From assembly GCA_016710325.1 (NCBI GenBank), contig JADJXK010000002.1:946622-1010621 (forward strand): a DNA stretch of 64,000 nt. The letters are read 5' to 3'. This stretch comes from Candidatus Leptofilum proximum. Its GTDB lineage: Bacteria > Chloroflexota > Anaerolineae > Promineifilales > Promineifilaceae. The translations under genes and the position numbers were made by a program. Positions 1,747 to 64,000 of the stretch are shown here, one piece after another (the first letter of the stretch is position 1; every line of letters starts with the position of its first letter). The notes beneath the pieces were generated by a model. The model saw only the letters and a list, made by a program, of their open reading frames with translations. It did no database searches and was not told the origin of the DNA.

Positions 1747-1808
1747 GTAATTAGGTAATTGAGTAATTGAGTAATCTAATTACCCAATTACTTAATTACT
1801 CAATTACC
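1747..1808. repeat. Periodic hairpin repeat, GTAATTNN family (8-nt units)
   Basis: GTAATTAG GTAATTGA GTAATTGA GTAAT, loop CTA, then ATTACCCA ATTACTTA ATTACTCA ATTACC. Confidence 0.85.
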
Positions 1809-1891
1809 CCGCTATAAAAAAGCCCAGGAACCGCCGCTCCCAGGCTCTTTCTCAATTAATCTCTTAATTCTCTGCGCCCTCTGTGGCCACC

Positions 1892-7039: not shown

Positions 7040-7127
7040 TAGCCATCCAGATTTCATAGGGTTCGGTGTGAAGCGCGAAACGTGAAACGTGATGCCTCTC
7101 TGGTCACGTTTCACGTTTCCCGCATCA
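7040..7127 (-). repeat. GTGAAACGT-family dispersed element, copy 1
   Basis: GAAACGTGAAACGTGA / TCACGTTTCACGTTTC (16-bp stem) plus a conserved flank. Confidence 0.8.
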
Positions 7128-8324: not shown

Positions 8325-9902
8325 TCAGGGAACCGGCAGCCAGACGGTGAATGTAGTGCCGCGACCCGGTTCGCTTTCCATGGCAATGTGGCCGTGATGG
8401 GCCTGCACAATTTGCTGGGCAATACACAGCCCCAGCCCCGTACCCACGATGTTTCCCTGCTCCGCCGGGCGCCCCCGGAAAAACCGATCAAAAATGTGTG
8501 CCTGATCTTCCGGGGCAATGCCCGGACCGTTATCCTGCACCTGCACCATCAGCCACTGCCGGTTTTCTTCTTCATACCGTGCCGCTTCCAGGTTGATCGT
8601 TGTGCCGGTTGGTGTATAGGCAAAAGCGTTATCCAGCAGCTCGCTAAAGACCTGCCGCAGTCGGGCACGGTCGCCTTTGAAAAGGGGTAAATTGTCTGCC
8701 GCGGTAAAGTTTAGGGTGTGCTGCGTCAGCTGAGCGCGTCTCTGATTGTTCGCCACGATTTGGCGCAGCATTTCGATCAGGTCAATAGAGCGCCACTCCA
8801 AAACACTCTCGGAGCTTTCCAGGCTGGCCAGCTCCAGGATATCCTGAACCAGGTGCTCCAGCCGTTCCGCCTGCTGGCTCAAGGTGTGCAGGTAGTGGGC
8901 CGCCTTGCCATTGCCCAATCCATCTTCAACCAGCTGGGTGTACAGTTTGATGTTGGTCAGCGGCGTACGCAGCTGGTGTGAAACGTTGGTAATGAAGCTG
9001 TACTGCGCCTTGTCCAACGCCTTAAAGCGGCTGATGTCTTGGTGGCTGGTAACATAGCCGGTGATACGGCCGTCTTCAGCCAACATCGGTACAATGGTTA
9101 GAACCGTGGGGTAAGTACGGCCGTCCTGGCACAACCCAATCACTTCCCCCGACCACACTGCGCCTGCGGCAAACGCCTGCGCCTGCGCCTGGAAATCCCG
9201 CGGGGCAAAATCAAACATCACCTCAAACGACTGCGTCTGCGCTTCCGCCAGGCTAAACATCGTCAGGTTGGTAAAGGCGGGGTTCACATACACGATTTTC
9301 TTATTGGCATCGGCCATGGCCACCGCTTCGGCAATAGAACCGAGCACCGCTTCCAGCTTCTCTTTTTCGGCGGCCAAATCGGCCGTGTGCTGCCGCACCT
9401 GCTGCTCCAATGAGCTGTTCACCTGCCGCAGCGCCGACTCCGCTTCCTTGCGCCAGCGAATATCCCGGGCAAAGTTGATCAACACATCGCGCCCCTGCCA
9501 GAACACCATGCGGCTGCTCACCTCCACCGGGATCAACGTGCCATTTTTGTGCCGGTAAGTAGTTTCGTAGAAAAAAGTGCCAGACACAGACGACTGCCAC
9601 GACGTTTCGGCTTCATCATCGTCCAGGGAACGCGGCATTTCCACCTGATCCAGCCCCAGCTGACACAGCTCGTCGCGGCGGTAGCCCAGGCGGCGCGCCG
9701 CGTTGGGGTTAGCCTCTAAAATTTTCGTGGTGTAGGGATCGACGATGAGGATGCTCTCGCCGGAATTTTCAAACAAGAAATCGCCGTAAGCAGCTGAAGC
9801 GGCCGACTGGTTTTTGGCCTCCAGTTCAGCAATCCGCTGTCGCAGTGCGCCAATTTCCTGTTGCAAGCGTTCATGAGACTGAGATTTATTCAAGAAACTC
9901 AT
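8325..9902 (-). CDS. PAS-domain sensor histidine kinase (cytoplasmic)
   Basis: A coiled N-terminus and two PAS-like regions. H-box FITNVSHQLRTPLT, N-box LLDNAFAY, and G-boxes QDNGPGI and GTGLGL. Confidence 0.9.
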   Translation of the reverse strand: MSFLNKSQSHERLQQEIGALRQRIAELEAKNQSAASAAYGDFLFENSGESILIVDPYTTKILEANPNAARRLGYRRDELCQLGLDQVEMPRSLDDDEAETSWQSSVSGTFFYETTYRHKNGTLIPVEVSSRMVFWQGRDVLINFARDIRWRKEAESALRQVNSSLEQQVRQHTADLAAEKEKLEAVLGSIAEAVAMADANKKIVYVNPAFTNLTMFSLAEAQTQSFEVMFDFAPRDFQAQAQAFAAGAVWSGEVIGLCQDGRTYPTVLTIVPMLAEDGRITGYVTSHQDISRFKALDKAQYSFITNVSHQLRTPLTNIKLYTQLVEDGLGNGKAAHYLHTLSQQAERLEHLVQDILELASLESSESVLEWRSIDLIEMLRQIVANNQRRAQLTQHTLNFTAADNLPLFKGDRARLRQVFSELLDNAFAYTPTGTTINLEAARYEEENRQWLMVQVQDNGPGIAPEDQAHIFDRFFRGRPAEQGNIVGTGLGLCIAQQIVQAHHGHIAMESEPGRGTTFTVWLPVP

Positions 9903-11850: not shown

Positions 11851-11943
11851 AATTCGGGTCTTTCGGATTTCGTAGGACTTGGCATGAAACGTGAAGCGTG
11901 AAACGTGATTTTTCCTGGTCACGCTTCACGTTTCACGCATCAC
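11851..11943 (-). repeat. GTGAAACGT-family dispersed element, copy 2
   Basis: GAAACGTGAAGCGTGAAACGTGA ... TCACGCTTCACGTTTCACGC plus the conserved flank CGGATTTCGTAGG. It lies between convergent genes and overlaps the stop codon at 11940. Confidence 0.8.
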
Positions 11944-20036: not shown

Positions 20037-21836
20037 ATGCTGCAAAAGCTCAACCTGCCCATCAAACCCTACTGGGATTTGCTGGCCAGCTACCTGAAAC
20101 CGCAAAAAAAGACGGTGCTGTGGCTGGCGCTGCTGCTGGTTGTCAGCATCGGTTTGCAGCTGGCCAACCCGCAAATCGTCAAATATTTCATCGATACAGC
20201 AAGTGAACCGGTTTCCAGCGGCACGGCCGCTTTCCAGCAAGGTCTGCAAAATCTGCTTGGGGCAGCGGCCCTGTTCATGGGCGTGGCCATCGTGCGGCAG
20301 GTGATTGCCTTAACGGCCGTTTACGTGGGTGAAAACGTCGCCTGGACCGCCACCAACGCCTTAAGAGCGGATCTCGCTCTACACTGCCTGCGGCTGGACA
20401 TGGCCTTCCACAAGCAGCACAAGCCGGGCGAACTCATCGAGCGCGTCGATGGCGACGTGAACAAACTGGCCAACTTTTTCTCCCAGCTGTTTATCCAGCT
20501 CACCAGCAACGTGCTGCTGCTCGTTGGCGTGATTGTGCTGCTGTGGCTGGTGGATTGGCGCGTGGGGGTGTCGATTACGGCCGTTTCCCTCCTCGGCGTG
20601 CTGGCGTTGAACTACCTGCGCACCCTCACCGTGCCCCGCTGGGAAGCGCTGCGCCAGACCGAAGCCACCCTGTTTGGCTTCCTCGAAGAGTGGCTCACCG
20701 GCGCCGAAACAATTCGCACCGCGGGTGCCGAACCGTACATCGTGCAAAAAATGCTGCTGCTGGGACGCGAGCGCTGGCTGCGCGTGCGAGACGCCATCAA
20801 GGTCAACGTCTTCGTCTGGAATTTGCCGCTGGGCGTTTTTACCCTCGCCTACATCGCCGCCCACATCTTTGGCACCACCCTCTTCCGCGAAGGCACGCTG
20901 ACGATTGGCGGTATCTACCTCATTTTTTATTACATCGACGTGATTAAAGAGCCATTGTGGAGCATTAACAGGCAGATCGAGGATTTGCAGCGGGCCGCCG
21001 CCAGCATTCGCCGCATCATGGCCCTGCAGGCGGAGCAGCCCACCATGCTCGATGGTCCCGGCGTGCACGTAACCCCTGGTCCGCTGGCTGTCACTTTCGA
21101 CCATGTCTCTTTCTTCTACGCCGACGACCCGGACACGATGATTTTGCAGGATATCGACTTCTGCCTCGAACCAGGCACGGTGCTGGGATTGCTGGGGCGC
21201 ACCGGCAGCGGCAAATCGACCCTCACCAAGCTGCTCTTCCGCTTTTACGATCCCAGCGAAGGGGCGATTTTGCTGGGCAACGATGATGTTCGATTTGATT
21301 TGCGCGACGCCCGGCAGGCGGAACTGCGCCGCCACATCGGGCTGGTGACGCAGGAGGTCCAGCTGTTCCACGCCAGCGTGCGTGACAACCTGACGCTGTT
21401 TGACCCCACCATTAGCGACGCCCAAATCCTGGCCGTGCTGGACGATCTGGGCCTGATGCCCTGGCTGGACAGCCTGCCCGGTGGACTTGACTCACCCTTG
21501 CAGGCGGATGCCAGCCTGTCGGCGGGAGAAGCGCAGCTGCTGGCCTTTGTGCGCATCTTCCTGGCCGATCCGGGGCTGGTGATTATGGATGAGGCGTCGT
21601 CCCGGCTGGACCCGGTGACGGAAATGAAGATCGAGCAGGCGATTGACAAGCTGCTGGCCAACCGCACGGGCATCATCGTCGCTCACCGACTGACCACCGT
21701 GCAGCGCGCCGACGAGATCATGATTTTGGGTGACGGCCGTATTGTGGAATACGGCCGTCGCACCCACCTAGCCGCCGACCCCACCTCCCAGTTTGCCCAA
21801 CTGCTGGTGACGGGGTTGGAGGAGGCAATTACCTGA
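20037..21836 (+). CDS. ABC exporter, fused permease/ATPase (MsbA type), subunit 1
   Basis: A 6-TM domain plus an NBD with GRTGSGKST (Walker A), LSAGEAQLLAF (signature), [11 protein letters not shown] (Walker B) and AHRL (H-loop). Confidence 0.92.
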   Translation: MLQKLNLPIKPYWDLLASYLKPQKKTVLWLALLLVVSIGLQLANPQIVKYFIDTASEPVSSGTAAFQQGLQNLLGAAALFMGVAIVRQVIALTAVYVGENVAWTATNALRADLALHCLRLDMAFHKQHKPGELIERVDGDVNKLANFFSQLFIQLTSNVLLLVGVIVLLWLVDWRVGVSITAVSLLGVLALNYLRTLTVPRWEALRQTEATLFGFLEEWLTGAETIRTAGAEPYIVQKMLLLGRERWLRVRDAIKVNVFVWNLPLGVFTLAYIAAHIFGTTLFREGTLTIGGIYLIFYYIDVIKEPLWSINRQIEDLQRAAASIRRIMALQAEQPTMLDGPGVHVTPGPLAVTFDHVSFFYADDPDTMILQDIDFCLEPGTVLGLLGRTGSGKSTLTKLLFRFYDPSEGAILLGNDDVRFDLRDARQAELRRHIGLVTQEVQLFHASVRDNLTLFDPTISDAQILAVLDDLGLMPWLDSLPGGLDSPLQADASLSAGEAQLLAFVRIFLADPGLVIMDEASSRLDPVTEMKIEQAIDKLLANRTGIIVAHRLTTVQRADEIMILGDGRIVEYGRRTHLAADPTSQFAQLLVTGLEEAIT

Positions 21837-21837
21837 G

Positions 21838-21909
21838 TGGAGAATAGAGATTGGAGATTGGAGACTAAAAATCTCCAATCTCCAGTCTCCAATCTCTTCC
21901 AATTTCCAC
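21838..21909. repeat. Periodic hairpin repeat, GGAGATT family
   Basis: GGAGAAT AGAGATT GGAGATT GGAGACT, loop AAAA, then ATCTCCA ATCTCCA GTCTCCA ATCTCTT. It fills the gap between the two ABC genes. Confidence 0.85.
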
Positions 21910-21910
21910 T

Positions 21911-23740
21911 ATGAACACATTATCGTATTACTGGCGGCTCATCCGCTTTACGCCCAAATACTATGCCGCCGACATCATCACGATATCGATTCACTTTGCC
22001 GTGACCACCGCACTGGGGCTGATTTTGCGCGCCTTTTTTAATGGGCTCACCGGGGAATCCAGCTTTGCCCTGCCGCTGTGGCCCATCGTTGGGCTGCAAA
22101 TTGCCTACGCCATCATCGCTGCGCTGTCCCAAATGGGCGCAGGCTGGGCCTTTATCAACTTCGAGCACATCTCCTATAACCTGCTTATCCGCAACATGCT
22201 GGCGCGCGTCCTGCAAAGGCCCGGCTCCCGCCCGCTGCCGCAAAACGAGGACGGCACCAGCATGTCCACCGGGCAAGCGATCAGCACTTTTCGCGACGAC
22301 ACCCACGAGCTGCTCATGGCCATCGTGGCCGTGGATGACGTGATTGGCCTGCTCATCAGCGCGGGCATTTCGCTGACAATCATGCTGCAAATCAGCGTGC
22401 CGGTGACGCTGGGCACGTTTGTGCCGCTGTTGATTGTGGTGGGCATTGCCCAGCGGCTGGGGGAGCGGGCCAAGCGGTATCGCAAAGCCAGCCGCCAGGC
22501 CACCAGCCAGGTGACGGGCATGATTGCCGACATGTTCAACAGCACCCAGGCGCTTAAGGTAGCCAACGCCGAAACGCGGGTCATCGACCGCTTCCGCCAG
22601 GTCAACGAGCAGCGCAAGCAGACGATGGTGCGCGACAAGCTGCTCACCCAGCTGGTCGATGCCCTCAGCGCAGGCACCATCGAACTGGGCATGGGCTTGA
22701 TTTTGCTGCTGGCGGCGCGGCAAATGTACCTGGGCACGTTTACCCTGGGTGATTTTGCCCTGTTTGCCGCCTACATCTGGCCCGTCACCCAGCTGTTCCG
22801 CATCTTCAGCCGGATGATTACCGGCTACAAGCAGGCGGGCGTCTCCACACAACGTATGGAAACGATGATGCAGGGCGCGCCGGTGGGCGCGGTTGTTGCG
22901 CCTCAGGAGCTGCACCTGGACGGCAGGCTGCCGCCGCTGCCGTACACGCCGAAAACGGCCGTCCACACCCTACAAAACCTATCCACCAAAAATCTCAACT
23001 TCACCTACCCCAGCAGCGAAAACGGCATTCACGACATCAACTTGTCGCTCAAGGCCGGTCAGTTTGTGGTCATCACCGGGCGCATTGGTGCGGGCAAAAC
23101 AACGCTGCTGAAGGTGCTGCTGGGGCTGCTCCCGGCGGATGCAGGGGAGATTTTGTGGAACGGCCGTCCCGTCACTGATCCCGCCAACTTCATGGCGCCA
23201 CCGCGCGTGGCCACCACCATGCAAATTCCGCGCCTGTTCAGCGAGTCGATTCGGGACAACATTTTGCTGGGCCTGCCGGAAAGTGAGGTGGATGTGCGAG
23301 GGGCGGTGCGGACGGCCGTTTTCGAGCAAGACCTGGCACAAATGGAGCAGGGGCTGGACACCATCGTGGGGCCGCGCGGCCAGCGATTGTCTGGCGGGCA
23401 GGCGCAGCGTGTGGCGGCGGCGCGCATGTTTGTGCGCCAGCCGGAGCTGCTGGTGTTCGATGATTTGTCGAGTGCGCTGGATGTGGAGACGGAGAAGGTT
23501 TTGTGGGAAAGATTGTTTAATAGAGATGGGAGATGGGAGATGGGAGATGGGTTAAATCAATCTCCAATCTCCAATCGCCAATCCCCTACTTGTTTAGTCG
23601 TCACTCACCGTCGCACAGCTTTACGCCGGGCGGATCATGTGGTGGTATTGAAAGACGGCCGTATCGCCGACGAAGGCACGCTGGACGAACTGCTGCTGCG
23701 TTGTGAGGAAATGCAGCAGCTGTGGCAGTTGGAAACTTGA
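21911..23740 (+). CDS. ABC exporter, fused permease/ATPase, subunit 2, carrying an in-frame repeat insertion
   Basis: GRIGAGKTT (Walker A), [12 protein letters not shown] (signature), [12 protein letters not shown] (Walker B/D-loop) and VVTHR (H-loop). The extra segment [21 protein letters not shown] lies between the D-loop helix and the H-loop. Confidence 0.9.
23522..23586. repeat. Periodic hairpin repeat (GGAGATG/ATCTCCA) inside the ABC CDS
   Basis: AGAGATG GGAGATG GGAGATG GGAGATG, loop GGTTAAATCA, then ATCTCCA ATCTCCA ATCGCCA ATCCCCT. It is in frame with no stop codon. Confidence 0.85.
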
Positions 23741-28022: not shown

Positions 28023-28114
28023 GGTAATCGGTAATCCGTTATCCGTAAGCGGTAATCCATTCACTGATTACCGCTTACCGTTCACCGCTTACCGTTCACC
28101 GTTCACCGCTTACC
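28023..28114. repeat. Periodic hairpin repeat, CGGTAAN family (7-nt units)
   Basis: GGTAATC GGTAATC CGTTATC CGTAAGC GGTAATC, a loop, then ATTACCG CTTACCG TTCACCG CTTACCG TTCACCG TTCACCG CTTACC. It lies between kdpB and kdpC. Confidence 0.85.
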
Positions 28115-28118
28115 TTCC

Positions 28119-41726: not shown

Positions 41727-41784
41727 AAGTGGCAAGTGGCAGGTGAAAACTTACTTGCCACCTGCCACTTGCCACCTGCCACTC
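41727..41784. repeat. Periodic hairpin repeat, GTGGCAN family (7-nt units)
   Basis: GAAGTGG CAAGTGG CAGGTGA, a loop, then CTTGCCA CCTGCCA CTTGCCA CCTGCCA. Confidence 0.85.
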
Positions 41785-47089: not shown

Positions 47090-47149
47090 ATAAGTAAGTG
47101 AGTAATTAGGTAATTGGGTAATTACTCACTTACCCAATTACTCAATTAC
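47090..47149. repeat. Periodic hairpin repeat, GTAATTNN family (8-nt units)
   Basis: AAGTAAGT GAGTAATT AGGTAATT GGGTAATT / ACTCACTT ACCCAATT ACTCAATT AC. Same family as 1747..1808 and 4633..4670. Confidence 0.85.
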
Positions 47150-56772: not shown

Positions 56773-56852
56773 CCCTATCACCCTATCACCTTGTCACCTT
56801 GTCACCTTGTCACCCCCTCACCCCTTCACCCCGTCACCCCCTCACCCCTTCA
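56773..56852. repeat. Tandem octamer array, 10 units of CCNNNTCA
   Basis: The ten units are: CCCTATCA twice, CCTTGTCA three times, then CCCCCTCA, CCCCTTCA, CCCCGTCA, CCCCCTCA and CCCCTTCA. Confidence 0.9.
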
Positions 56853-56933
56853 ATTCCTGGTTCCACACTACCGGTTGCTGGTACAATTCAACAGCCACAA
56901 ACAACTAGCTACTATGCAAAAGAGGAGAATCCC

Positions 56934-59171
56934 ATGTCCACTGTACTGAAATGGATCGTTCGTATCTTTGGCGTCCTGATTGGCGTGCTGCTGCTTATTT
57001 TTGTCGTGGCCGCCGCCATGCCCGCCAAGGCCGACCCCGACGTAGGCGAAAACCACGGCGCGGGGGCCAGCAGCGTGCAGCCATCGTACACCGGCTTGCA
57101 GCGTGAATTCCCGGCTCTGAACGAAACGGCCGCTAACCCCACCACCGACGCCAAAGCCGAGCTGGGCCGCTTACTCTTCTTCGATCCGGTGCTGTCTAAC
57201 AACAACGACACTGCCTGCGCCACCTGCCACCAGCCGGATTTGGGCTTTGCCGACGGCCGTATCCACGCCGTCGGCCCCACCGGTGTTGAGCAGACGCGCA
57301 ACACCCCCGGCCTGTGGAATGTTGGCTATGCGCAGAATTTGTTCTGGGACGGCCGTCTCGACTCCCTCGAAGCCCAATCCGAAATTCCCCTCACCCACCC
57401 GGATGAAATGGGCGTGGCCGACACCGCTGGCCTGGTCTCCGAAGTGGCGGCCATCGACGAGTACGAAGCGATGTTCAACGCCGCCTTCGATGACGGCGTG
57501 ACGCTGGCCAACATTGAAAACGCCCTGGCGGCGTTCCAGCGCACCCTCATCAGCAACAACAGCCCGTTTGACCAGTACGCCGCGGGCAAGGTGGATGCGC
57601 TGACGCCCAGCCAGCGGCGCGGCCTGGCGCTGTTCCGCTCCGGCGCAACGCGCTGCTTTGAGTGCCACACCGCCCCCACCTTCGCCAGCGACGGCTTCCG
57701 CGTGGTGGGCGTCCCCAGCGACGATCCGGGCCGGGCGGGCGTGGTGGCCGATGGCCTGGTAGGCGCGTTTAAGGTACCGTCGCTGCGCAACGTGGCCCTG
57801 ACGGCGCCATACATGCATGACGGCTCATTGGAAACGCTCGAAGCGGTGGTCAATTTTTACGCTGACGGCGGCGGCCGCCTGCACGGGCAAGAAAATGTGG
57901 ATGTGTTTGTCCAGGGCTTTGAGCTGACTGATCAGGAGCGTTTGGATCTGGTGGCGTTCCTCTACGCCTTAACAGATGAAAGCAATATGCCGGAAATTCC
58001 CACGGCCGTTCCCTCCGGCCTGCCCGTCATTGCACCCACCGATAACCCGGCTCGCGCCGAAGTGGCAGCGCACAACGTCGGTGGTAACAGCGGCATTGAT
58101 TTGGGCGACCGGGAACCAATGACGATTGTGGTGCAAGAAGGGGAGAGTGTGCAAACGGCCGTCGATCGCGCCCGCCCCGGTGACATCATCGAAGTGCCCT
58201 ACGGCATTTATCACGAACGTGTCGTTATCGACATCAACGACATCACCCTGCGCGGCATCCCCAACGAGGCGGGTGAATGGCCCATCTTCGACGGCGAAGG
58301 CGTGCGGACGGAAGCCGTTATCGCCTCTGGCAACAACTTCACCGTGGGCAACCTGCACGTGCGCAACTACACCGACAACGGCGTCCTGGTGGAAGGTGTG
58401 ACCGGCGTGCATTTCCACGACATCTTTGCCGAAAACGTGGGCACTTACGGCGTCTACCCCGTACGCAGCACCGAGGTGTTGATTGAGCGCGTGGAGGTCA
58501 CCGGCGTGGATGATGCCGGGATTTACGCCGGACAGTGCGAAAATGTCATTGTGCGTGACAGCGTGGTGTATGGCAATGTGCTGGGCATCGAGCTGGAAAA
58601 CACGATCGGCGGCGAAATCTACAACAACCACGCCTACGACAACACGGTAGGCATCTTCGTCGTCCTCTTGCCGCAGCTCACTTCAAAAGTATCGGCCAAC
58701 ACGCTAGTGTACAACAACATCGCCGAGGGCAACAACCACGAAAACTTCGCCCCACCTGGAGCAATGGCCGAGATTGCTCCGTCCGGTGTTGGCATCCTGC
58801 TGCTGGCTACAGACAACGCCGAGGTGTATGACAATACCATCCGCGACAACAAGACCACTGGCGTGGCGGTCTTCAGCCTCACCAGCACCGGCGCGTTTGA
58901 TGTAAACGAGGTGGATGTGGGGCCGCTGCCGGAAAACAACTGGATACACGGCAACACCTACGAAAACAACGGCTATGATGCCGATCCATTTGTGAAGGAT
59001 TTAGGGATTCCCACGGCCGATATACTCTGGGACGGCACGGGTATGGACAACCGCTTCAACGAAGAGGGTGCTTCCACCTTCCCGCCGCTGGTGCCAGGTG
59101 ATGGCTGGCCCAGCTTTGTGCGGCGCGGCTACACCAACATCCTCGGCTTTTTGGTGGACCAAATCCTTTAA
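56934..59171 (+). CDS. Di-heme cytochrome c peroxidase (CCP/MauG family) fused to a right-handed parallel beta-helix (NosD/PbH1-like) domain
   Basis: N-terminal TM anchor. CATCH and CFECH heme motifs with PSLRNV...PYMHDG. The C-terminal half has repeated G..V....N..V.DN units. Start at the ATG at 56934 with an AGAGGAG SD, because the ORF start at 56799 lies in the octamer array. Confidence 0.85.
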   Translation: MSTVLKWIVRIFGVLIGVLLLIFVVAAAMPAKADPDVGENHGAGASSVQPSYTGLQREFPALNETAANPTTDAKAELGRLLFFDPVLSNNNDTACATCHQPDLGFADGRIHAVGPTGVEQTRNTPGLWNVGYAQNLFWDGRLDSLEAQSEIPLTHPDEMGVADTAGLVSEVAAIDEYEAMFNAAFDDGVTLANIENALAAFQRTLISNNSPFDQYAAGKVDALTPSQRRGLALFRSGATRCFECHTAPTFASDGFRVVGVPSDDPGRAGVVADGLVGAFKVPSLRNVALTAPYMHDGSLETLEAVVNFYADGGGRLHGQENVDVFVQGFELTDQERLDLVAFLYALTDESNMPEIPTAVPSGLPVIAPTDNPARAEVAAHNVGGNSGIDLGDREPMTIVVQEGESVQTAVDRARPGDIIEVPYGIYHERVVIDINDITLRGIPNEAGEWPIFDGEGVRTEAVIASGNNFTVGNLHVRNYTDNGVLVEGVTGVHFHDIFAENVGTYGVYPVRSTEVLIERVEVTGVDDAGIYAGQCENVIVRDSVVYGNVLGIELENTIGGEIYNNHAYDNTVGIFVVLLPQLTSKVSANTLVYNNIAEGNNHENFAPPGAMAEIAPSGVGILLLATDNAEVYDNTIRDNKTTGVAVFSLTSTGAFDVNEVDVGPLPENNWIHGNTYENNGYDADPFVKDLGIPTADILWDGTGMDNRFNEEGASTFPPLVPGDGWPSFVRRGYTNILGFLVDQIL

Positions 59172-62206: not shown

Positions 62207-64000
62207 ATGACACGAGAAATGAGTAACTGGGAGCTGCTGACGCAATATTTACGGCCGTACACCGCCCGTCTCTTAGGGCTGAGCACCCTGCTGGCCGTCA
62301 GTATTGCCCTCCAGCTCTACGGCCCCCAGGTCATTCGTGACTTTTTGGATGCGGCGCAAAGCGGTACGGCCGTACGGCCGTTGGTCACCCTGGGCGCGCT
62401 GTTTTTTGTGGTGACCGTGGCGCAAAAGGCCGTGGAGCTGTGGACGACTTACCTGAGTGAAGACCTGGGTTGGGCGGCCACCAACGGCCTGCGCGCCGAC
62501 CTGGCTGCCCACACCATGCGGCTGGACATGGGTTTCCACAAGCTGCAAACCCCCGGCGAACTCATCGAGCGGATCGATGGCGACGTGAGCAACCTGGCCG
62601 AGTTTTTCTCGCGGCTGGTGATCCGGGTGTTGGGCAACGCGGTGCTGGTCATTGGCATCCTGGTGCTGCTGTTCCGCGAGGATTGGCGCATTGGGCTGGT
62701 GGGGCTGGGCTACGGCCTGCTCACGCTGGGGCTGCTGCAAATCATCCGCAAACCGACGGTGAGCGTCTGGCGCGAGGTGAGCAAGGGATATGCCAGGCTG
62801 CACGGCTACGTTGAGGAACGCATCGGCGGCACGGAAGACATTCGCGCCAATGGCGGCGAGCCGTACGTGTTCCACAAGCTCTACCCGCTGCTGGCCGACG
62901 TGGCCAAAAGCCGCGTCAAGGCCGACGTGATCGGTGGTTACACCTTCAGCAGCAGCTACATGCTGTACGTCCTAGCGATTGTGGTCACGCTGGCGCTGGC
63001 GGGAACGTTTTTCCTGCAAGGGCAGATCACCATTGGCACGCTGTTTCTGCTGGTGGCCTACGTGCGGCTGATGGAATCGCCAATTAAGTACATCCGGCGG
63101 CAAATCAGCGACATGCAGCGCGCCGTGGCCAGCATCGGCCGTATCAACGAGTTTATGCGCCTGGAACCAGATGTGAAGGAGTCCGTAACTGCCAGTTTGC
63201 CCGATGGGGCAACGGCCGTTGCCTTCCACGGTGTCTCGTTTGCCTATAAAGACCGGTTGTCGGTAGTCGGTGAACGGTTATCGGTGAACGGATTGCCGAT
63301 TACGGATAACCGATTACCGCTTACCGATAACGGATTACCGAACGTGCTGCACGATGTCACCTTCACCCTGGAGGCGGGCAAAGTGCTGGGGCTGCTGGGG
63401 CGGACGGGCAGCGGCAAGACGACTCTGACGCGGCTGCTCTTCCGGCTGTACGACGTGGATGCGGGGCGCATCACGCTGGACGGCACCGACCTGCGCCAGG
63501 TGAGCCTGGCCGACGTGCGGCAGCACATCGGCATGGTGACCCAGGACGTGCAGCTGTTTGCCGCCACCGTGCGGGACAATCTGACGCTGTTCCGCCGCTA
63601 CGATCCAGACAAACCACCGATTCCCGACAGTGAGATCGAGGCCGCCCTGCACACGCTGGGTCTGGGCGACTGGCTGGCCAGCCTGCCCGACGGCCTGGAC
63701 ACGGAACTAAAAACGGGCGGGCAGGGGCTGTCGGCGGGGCAGGCGCAGCTGCTGGCTTTTACGCGCGTCTTTTTGCGCAATCCGCAGCTGGTGATTCTGG
63801 ACGAGGCCTCATCTCGGCTGGACCCAGCCACGGAGCAGCTTTTAGAACGAGCGATTGACACGCTGCTGACCGGCCGTACCGCCATCATCATCGCCCACCG
63901 CCTGCACACCGTGCAGCGCGCCGACGACATCTTGATTTTGGAGAACGGCTGCATCCAAGAACACGGCCCCCGCTTACACCTATTCAACAATCCCAATTCC
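62207..64000 (+). CDS. ABC exporter, fused permease/ATPase, paralog of 20037..21836; 3' end beyond the window; carries an in-frame repeat insertion
   Basis: Hand translation from the ATG at 62207 gives [18 protein letters not shown]...[14 protein letters not shown]. The NBD has [31 protein letters not shown] and AHRL. The frame stays open to nt 64000. It is not in the ORF track because no stop lies in the window. Confidence 0.88.
63254..63343. repeat. Periodic repeat, CGGTAAN family, inside the ABC CDS
   Basis: Thirteen successive 7-nt units: GGTTGTC GGTAGTC GGTGAAC GGTTATC GGTGAAC GGATTGC CGATTAC GGATAAC CGATTAC CGCTTAC CGATAAC GGATTAC CGAAC. They translate as [29 protein letters not shown]. 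Confidence 0.85.

Follow-up and report, generated by a model that had tools for sequence, protein, structure and literature searches.

Background

The short tandemly repeated repetitive (STRR) elements of heterocystous cyanobacteria are built of 7-nt units, which are CCCCAGT, TTGGTCA and CAACAGT for STRR1-3. An STRR sequence is reportedly located inside the gene for RNase P RNA, and the gene remains functional with it. Heptanucleotide repeats including the STRR sequences lie chiefly between genes, are rarer than expected in coding regions and have received little study according to PMC4692102, which summarises Mazel 1990, and polymerase slippage on the 7-nt units has been proposed for heptanucleotide repeats generally, as PMC4679880 summarises it from Mrazek 2007. 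The Rickettsia palindromic elements (RPEs) are, according to the summary in PMC6649704 of Ogata et al. 2000 (Science 290:347), 2002 and Claverie & Ogata 2003, selfish palindromes that lie in frame in many genes, are translated, are compatible with the function of these genes and decay with time. Here we analyze a heptamer array that lies inside an ATP-binding cassette (ABC) exporter gene of Candidatus Leptofilum proximum, a member of the Chloroflexota, in a stretch of 64,000 nt (GCA_016710325.1, contig JADJXK010000002.1, positions 946,622 to 1,010,621 of the forward strand), hereafter called the window. Our analysis suggests that this array is probably an STRR-like heptanucleotide repeat element, which lodged in a permissive loop of the nucleotide-binding domain (NBD), is translated as a disordered peptide and is filtered for reading frame and stop codons only.

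Results

Location and anatomy of the insert

The reading frame of the host gene is open over all 598 codons present in the window, and its translation passes through the repeat tract without a stop codon. Pfam recognizes ABC_membrane at residues 28-289 and ABC_tran at residues 381-535 of the protein, in which the Walker motifs and the IAHR motif were also found. A preliminary description of this DNA, made from the letters alone, had placed the array in frame in an ABC gene, and these data agree with it and show the gene to be intact. We infer from the conserved reading frame that the insert is translated.

The insert begins shortly after the tyrosine Y347 of the SFxY motif, which we take to be the aromatic A-loop residue stacking on adenine. 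In all 121 sequences compared, Y347 and D349 are invariant, and so are G398, T400 and G401-T405 of the Walker A motif, with R399 nearly so (at least 90%). In the comparison with the PDB, homology to solved NBDs (TM_0288, Sav1866 and ABCB1) restarts at residue 379/380, directly past the insert. The AlphaFold model made with the 121-sequence alignment has a predicted local distance difference test (pLDDT) score below 50 at residues 349-377, with block means of 26-43 and no secondary structure, and this segment falls between the strands at 338-345 and 381-388. The insert is thus predicted to be a disordered excursion of the β1-β2 turn, i.e. a disordered surface loop between strands β1 and β2 of the NBD, which supports the earlier suggestion of a tolerant position on the NBD surface. 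The paralogue at 20037 reads VSFFYADDPDTMILQDIDF at this position and lacks the insert, as had been noted before.

The positions 63254-63343 read CGGTTGT CGGTAGT CGGTGAA CGGTTAT CGGTGAA CGGATTG CCGATTA CGGATAA CCGATTA CCGCTTA CCGATAA CGGATTA CCGAAC, which the preliminary description took for thirteen consecutive units. The heptamers are real and the 13 units share one 7-nt phase, but they do not form a plain tandem array. They make up two inverted half-arrays, (CGGTNNN)x5 followed by (NNNACCG)x7, and the insert ends at 63340 after about 12.5 units. Tandem Repeats Finder (TRF) reports arrays of periods 7, 14 and 21 at 63261-63341 with matches of 75-88%, and adjacent units are never identical. 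The arms at 63256-63291 and 63296-63331 are 78% complementary and are separated by a 4-nt loop. As RNA, the insert has a folding energy of -50 kcal/mol (z -7.46), which was not reached by any of 200 shuffles.

Several known kinds of element do not fit this structure. A terminator scan found no terminator-like site overlapping 63254-63340, and the stem is followed by AACGTGCTG with no T run, unlike in an intrinsic terminator. The Rfam scan gave no family match for the insert. A miniature inverted-repeat transposable element is not indicated either: there is no direct duplication of a target site at the flanks (AAAGAC before and AACGTG after the insert), and the element is periodic throughout rather than bounded by terminal inverted repeats.

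Age and distribution of the insert

By the names of its homologues the window belongs in Chloroflexota, Ardenticatenia, Promineifilales, and in the Promineifilaceae or close to them. The insert was found at the exact same site in all 120 best homologues (59-89% identity), i.e. in 121 of 121 sequences counting the window, with lengths of 13-42 aa and a median of 26. All 18 orthologous DNA loci that we fetched also carry it, and nine fetched loci (80-89% identity) have the gene order RIO1 kinase, host ABC gene and partner ABC gene. At L001-L009 (at least 60% identity, one genome per species) the inserts are 39-96 nt long and show the 7-nt periodicity. About 30 loci at ~50% identity or less, from Paenibacillus, Poribacteria, Ktedonobacteria and most Anaerolineales, have 2 aa at the site, which on comparison of these sequences is the ancestral state of the loop. 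Because the site is occupied in all relatives down to 59% identity and the synteny is conserved, the insertion is old, at the level of the family, and not private to this genome. Conservation at the protein level, which the preliminary description had named as a point against its own reading, was found for the presence and position of the insert across the family but not for its sequence and length.

In some further Chloroflexota this loop holds acidic or Pro-rich inserts of 15-37 aa that are not periodic. At L010-L012, L016, L020, L042, L045 and L072 (Promineifilum and other Chloroflexota) such inserts measure 15-27 aa and may be decayed arrays. A separate 111-nt insert, GPPTTDHRSAPSDNRGSTANDASAGDAPSSVVGRRSS, occupies this loop in a Chloroflexaceae metagenome-assembled genome (MAG; L023, 48% identity). 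It folds at -57.9 kcal/mol (z -3.7), and its ends translate as reverse complements (TTDHR / VVGRR). From this case the β1-β2 loop appears to be a recurrent acceptor of inserts.

Arrays of period 7, 14 or 21 number 114 in 307 kb of the clade versus 76 in 776 kb of other loci. A 236-nt tandem array of a longer, GCCATGCACCGGCCATTTTGT-like unit was observed outside open reading frames (ORFs) at 12639-12874 of L001 (Ca. Leptovillus affinis).

Turnover of the DNA and selection on the insert

We phased the 19 orthologous inserts (the window plus the 18 fetched loci) by their heptamers. The left arm is their best conserved part and belongs to one family, CGGTNAN or CAGTNAN (translated as RLSVNGN, QLSVNGN or QYSVNGN), in 15 of the 19 loci; the exceptions are L004 with a GTGGCAA arm and L001, L003 and L006 with other variants (CAATTGT, GAACAGT). 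The right arm is either complementary (CCGATNA, PITDNRL), giving a hairpin, or of the unrelated CAATCTC family (SPISNLQSQ), giving none. These two types of right arm are interleaved on a tree of the 35 closest homologues from which the insert columns were left out, implying at least 5 switches.

The hairpin varies, with z of -4 or lower at 10 of the 19 loci, values in between at L001 (-2.2) and L087 (-2.8), and values from -1.1 to +1.4 at the other 7. The proteins encoded at L084 and L085 are almost the same, but the z values of these loci are -0.9 and -4.2, the stem of L084 being broken by CCG-to-CAG changes. A hairpin appears not to be required at this site. The structure of the window copy is 85% paired across 7 orthologues compared with 16-47% when it is slid along them. 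Across the same 7 orthologues no covariation above that of shuffles was detected in the hairpin (1 double change in 33 pairs), so that structural selection is neither shown nor excluded.

None of the 19 inserts contains an in-frame stop codon, and all are divisible by 3 in length, though 12 lengths between 39 and 120 nt occur among them. The same divisibility by 3 holds for this site throughout the 58 loci measured. The loci were read as consensus assemblies, and the ORF calls of our surveys are stop-to-stop heuristics. Lengths that are all in frame are not expected of an untranslated or excised sequence, for which the chance would be (1/3)^12 or ~2e-6. Substitutions in 7 gap-free pairs are spread over the codon positions as 33:34:45 in the insert, which is not different from uniform, versus 99:59:358 in 480 nt of flank. 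Purifying selection therefore acts on the host gene but not on the peptide encoded by the insert. These pairs are a biased subset that can be aligned without gaps, as most pairs differ by indels or replaced arms. The composition of the insert is also distinct, with S 15.7%, N 10.9% and Q 10.1% compared with 4.6%, 2.7% and 4.5% outside the insert.

A dispersed family of heptamer arrays

We confirmed that the insert shares its unit family with the array between kdpB and kdpC, as the preliminary description had it. The sequence CGGTNNNCGGTNNNCGGT, with at most 1 mismatch, has 14 matches in the window, confined to 28063-28115 and 63254-63340, versus 0.38 +/- 0.60 in the shuffled window, where none of 100 shuffles reached 14. 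The two loci thus belong to one family far above chance. Their copies are 83% identical over 58 nt, compared with ~71% for any two arrays of the family, so that the direction and age of copying between them, which this comparison had been meant to give, cannot be inferred. The intergenic copy at 28060-28114 likewise has a 21-nt period and one open frame, and for this reason we dropped the 21-nt super-period as proof of frame selection.

Altogether the 64 kb of the window contain 11 period-7 arrays, 8 of them outside ORFs, plus octamer arrays. They represent at least six unit families, and the TRF units include CGGTAAT, GGAGATT, GTGAAAC and AAGTGGC. Seven of the eight window arrays that we folded have z values from -4.9 to -9.8, and the coding copy at 23510-23595 reaches only -1.8. 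HIP1 is not enriched in the window (1 match vs 1.87 expected).

The same heptamers were found in frame in genes of unrelated function. At least 120 taxonomically unassigned metagenome contigs match the 20-mer CRGTTATCRGTRAACGGTRA, and many of these matches are intergenic. Inside genes identified by Pfam, in-frame RLSVNG/QLSVNG arrays occur in MutS (domain III), UvrA, LeuC/aconitase, HypF and a NuoE/F fusion, and further in the HATPase_c of a hybrid histidine kinase, an FAD oxidase, an AMP-binding enzyme, a molybdopterin enzyme (MoCoBD) and a TIR protein (contigs L103, L158, L165, L195, L120, L132, L128, L142, L187 and L104), as well as in further ABC orthologues. The preliminary description had suggested that coding insertions are common in this genome, and they are indeed common in its lineage, the partner ABC genes being further hosts. 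Most of the coding arrays in the metagenome contigs are short, one-armed and without a hairpin, by z values taken on 160-nt segments and hence diluted by flanking sequence. In MutS and UvrA a left array of the CGGT type is combined with a right one of the CAATCTC type. HypF (L195) also contains a second in-frame repeat, EVRGQRSEVR, at two places. We set aside the viral contigs with the 20-mer, as their 10 matches represent one conserved phage gene at 46% GC and not arrays.

Exchange between the partner ABC genes

The partner ABC gene of the orthologous loci carries in-frame arrays at the homologous post-A-loop site, e.g. LQFDFGNRYSVNGNRLSVNGERITDYGSPITDNWSLS at 13016-13096 of L083. It has a second array site just before the H-loop strand, which is the site of the window array at 23523-23583 and is filled in the partner genes of L084 (7128), L088 (14083), L089 (14850), L001 (9579) and L003 (4579). 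At L004 (7012-7200 vs 9028-9270) and L009 (7018-7210 vs 9022-9200) the arrays of the two genes, ABC-A and ABC-B, share ~85-110 near-identical nt. This tract includes idiosyncratic units and continues into the coding sequence downstream of the arrays for some tens of bases, where 17 consecutive bases (ACATCACCTTCACCCTG) are identical between the two ABC genes of L009; the upstream flanks of the two arrays are unrelated at both loci. A near-identical tract that runs into the downstream flank, next to unrelated upstream flanks, points to gene conversion between the paralogous NBDs. Across 12 genomes, the resemblance of ABC-A to ABC-B arrays is greater within a genome than from one genome to another (permutation p <5e-5), but the test is confounded by phylogeny and we set it aside, basing the conversion claim on the direct alignments of L004 and L009. 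Two independent insertion events in 64 kb, as counted in the preliminary description, can thus not be affirmed, since the arrays occupy two recurrent NBD loops that are common to the paralogues and are exchanged by conversion.

Other features of the window and of the operon

The coordinates of the insert, of its host gene and of other arrays of the window are given in Table 1. The array at 23523-23583 consists of four GAGATGG units followed by CAATCTC. The arrays at 7068-7119, 11885-11943, 21838-21896 and 41727-41783 are strong heptamer hairpins (z -4.9 to -7.2) adjoining gene ends, and as none of the four has a T run they resemble repetitive extragenic palindromic (REP) elements rather than terminators. 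The arrays at 1747-1809 and 47094-47149 are octamer hairpins of GTAATTAA / AATTACNC units with z -9.8 and -5.8. An 80-nt direct octamer array of CCCTGTCA-like units was also observed at 56773-56852, at the start of ORF 56799..59171, and it probably lies upstream of the true start of this ORF.

Table 1. Coordinates of the insert, its host gene and other repeat arrays of the window
Feature	Position	Strand	Remarks
Host gene	62207..64000	+	Type I ABC exporter half-transporter (transmembrane domain and NBD), subunit 1 of a heterodimeric pair; intact, runs past the window end
A-loop tyrosine codon (Y347)	63245..63247	+	Two codons 5' of the insert; invariant in 121 sequences
Insert	63254..63340	+	87 nt, ~12.5 heptamer units, 29 codons, residues 350-378; bounds set against homologues
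Left hairpin arm	63253..63291	+	CGGTNNN units; every third is a stop-free variant (CGGTTGT, CGGTTAT)
Hairpin loop ATTG	63292..63295	+	From the minimum free energy structure
Right hairpin arm	63296..63334	+	NNNACCG / CCGATNA units; one more unpaired unit up to 63340
Walker A (GRTGSGKT, residues 398-405)	63398..63421	+	19 codons 3' of the insert
Intergenic CGGTNNN-family array	28023..28114	.	Between kdpB and kdpC; hairpin -39.9 kcal/mol, z -6.65
Octamer array	1747-1809		Outside ORFs
GTGAAAC / TCACGTT array	7068-7119		ORF call doubtful
TGAAACG / TCACGCT array	11885-11943		Between convergent genes
GGAGATT / AATCTCC array	21838-21896		Between ABC genes 20037 and 21911
GAGATGG / CAATCTC array	23523-23583	+	In frame in ABC gene 21911..23740, directly before the H-loop strand TCLVVTHRR
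AAGTGGC / TGCCACC array	41727-41783		Outside ORFs
Octamer array	47094-47149		Outside ORFs

The wider operon of the host gene is otherwise syntenic, with RIO1 kinase, ABC, ABC, (ABC), GNAT acetyltransferases and RsgA. At L082, L088 and L089 one or two small genes (AAA_33/zeta-toxin-like, GNAT) lie between the two ABC genes. The 88%-identical orthologue P0004 is labelled "helicase" in NCBI/nr though it is an ABC exporter, which is probably a mis-annotation.

Discussion

Persistence of a repeat array in an ABC gene

The insert would be a member of a dispersed family of STRR-like heptanucleotide arrays, which appears abundant in this Promineifilaceae-type Chloroflexota genome and of which most arrays would be intergenic and many would consist of two inverted half-arrays folding into a hairpin. 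One such array probably lodged in frame in the β1-β2 turn, two residues past the A-loop tyrosine, in an ancestor of the family. Its persistence there would be explained by three conditions, namely that the turn is solvent-exposed and accepts extra residues, that the open frame gives a hydrophilic disordered peptide rich in Ser, Asn and Gln, and that exact excision is improbable, the array shrinking, growing or being overwritten but never vanishing. With exact excision unlikely, the insertion would be effectively irreversible. The DNA turns over fast through gain and loss of units, G-to-A decay of the arms and overwriting by gene conversion or templated copying, for which the partner ABC gene, with its array at the homologous loop, is one source. 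A palindrome could arise from a one-armed array by template switching. At the level of the host, a length divisible by three and the lack of stop codons are the only visible constraints. The data above show the anatomy, age and turnover of the element, its frame constraint, its disorder and lack of selection on the peptide, its exchange between paralogues and its presence in other genes, while we infer both the absence of a host function and the way in which the array first entered the gene.

Some observations weigh against this proposal. The insert was never lost in the 121 homologues and never falls below 13 aa, and both subunits of the heterodimer carry an insert at the same loop; given this unbroken retention and the occupation of both subunits, the loop could have acquired a role. 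Nearly all the coding arrays of the fetched loci are in ABC genes, but these loci are centred on the ABC operon and their sites are orthologous, so that the counts are not independent events. The point divergence of the insert in the 7 gap-free pairs, which are a biased subset, is 0.19 per site compared with 0.32 at position 3 of the flank (0.07 at positions 1+2), which hints at some constraint at the DNA level or at homogenisation. In addition, neither a transposase nor any other enzyme capable of moving the arrays was found in the 64 kb of the genome covered, in which the REP-associated transposase RAYT was not searched for.

Alternative explanations

The retention of the insert and the filled loop of the partner subunit would also be expected of an adapted protein loop, whose peptide serves the transporter, e.g. 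as a flexible regulatory or interaction loop by the ATP site, with a minimum length selected in both subunits. The non-periodic acidic or Pro-rich inserts at this place in more distant Chloroflexota point the same way. We nevertheless think this unlikely, as the substitutions are uniform across the codon positions, the sequence, the length and even the repeat family vary among close relatives, the segment is predicted to be disordered, and the paralogue at 20037 and distant homologues work with 2 aa. Selection could instead act on the nucleic acid, with the stem serving, e.g., for ribosome pausing after the membrane domain emerges, for mRNA stability or processing, or for protein binding as in REP elements. 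The great stability of the hairpin, the strong hairpins that 10 of the 19 orthologues retain despite differing sequences, the point divergence below that of synonymous sites and the folding of the intergenic copies as hairpins would all agree with such a function. However, 7 of the 19 orthologues have no hairpin, the covariation is not above that of shuffles, there is neither a terminator tail nor an Rfam match, and most of the arrays inside other genes are short, have one arm and lack structure, which makes a functional hairpin quite unlikely in our view.

The 7-nt unit itself raises the possibility of a phase-variable contingency locus, in which slippage by one unit shifts the frame and switches the transporter on or off. 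The gene neuO of E. coli K1 works in this way through a heptanucleotide variable number tandem repeat, and 65.6% of its genomes are OFF (PMC13001214). A change by one unit would break the frame of our locus too, and several orthologous inserts differ in length by exactly 21 nt. But the units are heterogeneous with no identical neighbours, which disfavours slippage; none of the 19 arrays and none of the 58 loci, known as consensus assemblies only, is out of frame, in contrast to the large share of OFF neuO genomes; and the array is found in the middle of the gene, in a cytoplasmic domain of the housekeeping type. We consider phase variation very improbable here. Hardly credible at all is a very recent insertion private to this genome and caught before selection removed it, which takes up one of the two options named in the preliminary description and with which the well-preserved hairpin and the resemblance to the intergenic copy are compatible. 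The site is filled in every relative down to 59% identity and at 18 syntenic orthologous loci, across which the left arm is homologous, and the occupation of all 120 best homologues and 18 DNA loci refutes this explanation.

Implications

A translated repeat element in a permissive loop, as we propose for the window, may be one case of something wider. It is conceivable, at somewhat less than even chances in our judgement, that Promineifilaceae-type Chloroflexota hold a lineage-wide population of translated heptanucleotide arrays, a counterpart of the RPEs that is built from simple sequence repeats (SSRs) in free-living bacteria. These arrays would be copied by gene conversion or templated repair among paralogous as well as unrelated sites, with reading frame and stop codons as the only filter. 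Dozens of housekeeping proteins would have acquired them as entrenched loops that are disordered and hypervariable (both NBDs of heterodimeric ABC exporters, MutS, UvrA, LeuC, HypF). In the strongest form of this idea, the palindromic ABC copies may also act on the mRNA, e.g. as a pause site. In the literature searched, whose coverage was incomplete, we found no account of heptamer hairpin arrays lying in frame in genes of Chloroflexota.

If correct, our reading would mean that simple-sequence-type repeats, and not defined mobile elements alone, can colonise essential genes of free-living bacteria, and the persistence of the insert over family-level divergence would be a natural example of an insertion that is hard to reverse. 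The two loops of ABC NBDs pinpointed as tolerant of insertions, post-A-loop and pre-H-loop, could be used for tagging or engineering, and gene conversion is documented as one way for such inserts to pass from one paralogue to another. On the practical side, the arrays break local alignments, as seen where the PDB homology restarts past the insert, and can inflate apparent divergence. They are also likely to disturb the assembly and annotation of MAGs in a group that is important for wastewater treatment.

Comparison with known systems

Among the described systems, the heptanucleotide variable number repeat of neuO shares with our insert the presence of heptamers inside a coding sequence, where three units add up to 7 codons and translation passes through only if their number is a multiple of three. 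The NeuO repeats are perfect, unidirectional, at the 5' end and phase variable, with most genomes OFF, whereas the array described here has degenerate units in a palindromic arrangement, lies in the middle of its gene and keeps the frame in every case. The coding palindromes of Nematomorpha mitochondria (PMC6649704) are likewise long hairpin-forming inverted repeats in conserved coding sequence that are gained and lost between species. They differ in being perfect, with both arms encoding conserved residues, and in not being built of short units; the arms described here are imperfect and periodic and encode a non-conserved loop. REP elements and their doublets, the REPINs (PMC3116915), resemble our arrays in being short doublets that are dispersed, fold into hairpins, lie close to gene ends and make up populations within a genome, but REPINs are conserved in sequence, extragenic and tied to a RAYT transposase, while our units are tandem heptamers and some of the copies are coding.

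The closest system in build is that of the cyanobacterial STRR sequences and heptanucleotide SSRs. Both have a 7-nt unit and several families per genome, both are dispersed and mostly intergenic near gene ends, and both can lie within a gene that stays functional. Our insert has TRF periods of 7, 14 and 21, and the arrays around it fall into several families that are predominantly intergenic (8/11), as in heptanucleotide SSRs. It is not a cyanobacterial STRR proper, since the units CGGTAAT, GGAGATT, GTGAAAC and AAGTGGC differ from those of STRR1-3 and the host belongs to the Chloroflexota. The present arrays differ further in being commonly paired inverted halves and in lying in frame in coding genes.

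In behaviour the closest analogue would be the Rickettsia RPEs, though their build is different. As in that class, the insert belongs to a dispersed family, forms a palindromic hairpin and has relatives in frame in genes of unrelated function. Both systems are dispersed palindromic repeats that sit in frame in unrelated housekeeping genes and lose their repeat identity there with time. The conserved frame and the predicted disordered loop suggest that the insert may, like RPEs, be translated at a place that the fold accommodates. RPEs are ~100-150 bp long with a defined consensus, whereas the element described here is made of degenerate 7-nt units of several families. Its host is a free-living filamentous member of the Chloroflexota and not a reduced intracellular genome. 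Finally, in contrast to RPEs, it has had its arms replaced repeatedly and has taken part in gene conversion between paralogues.

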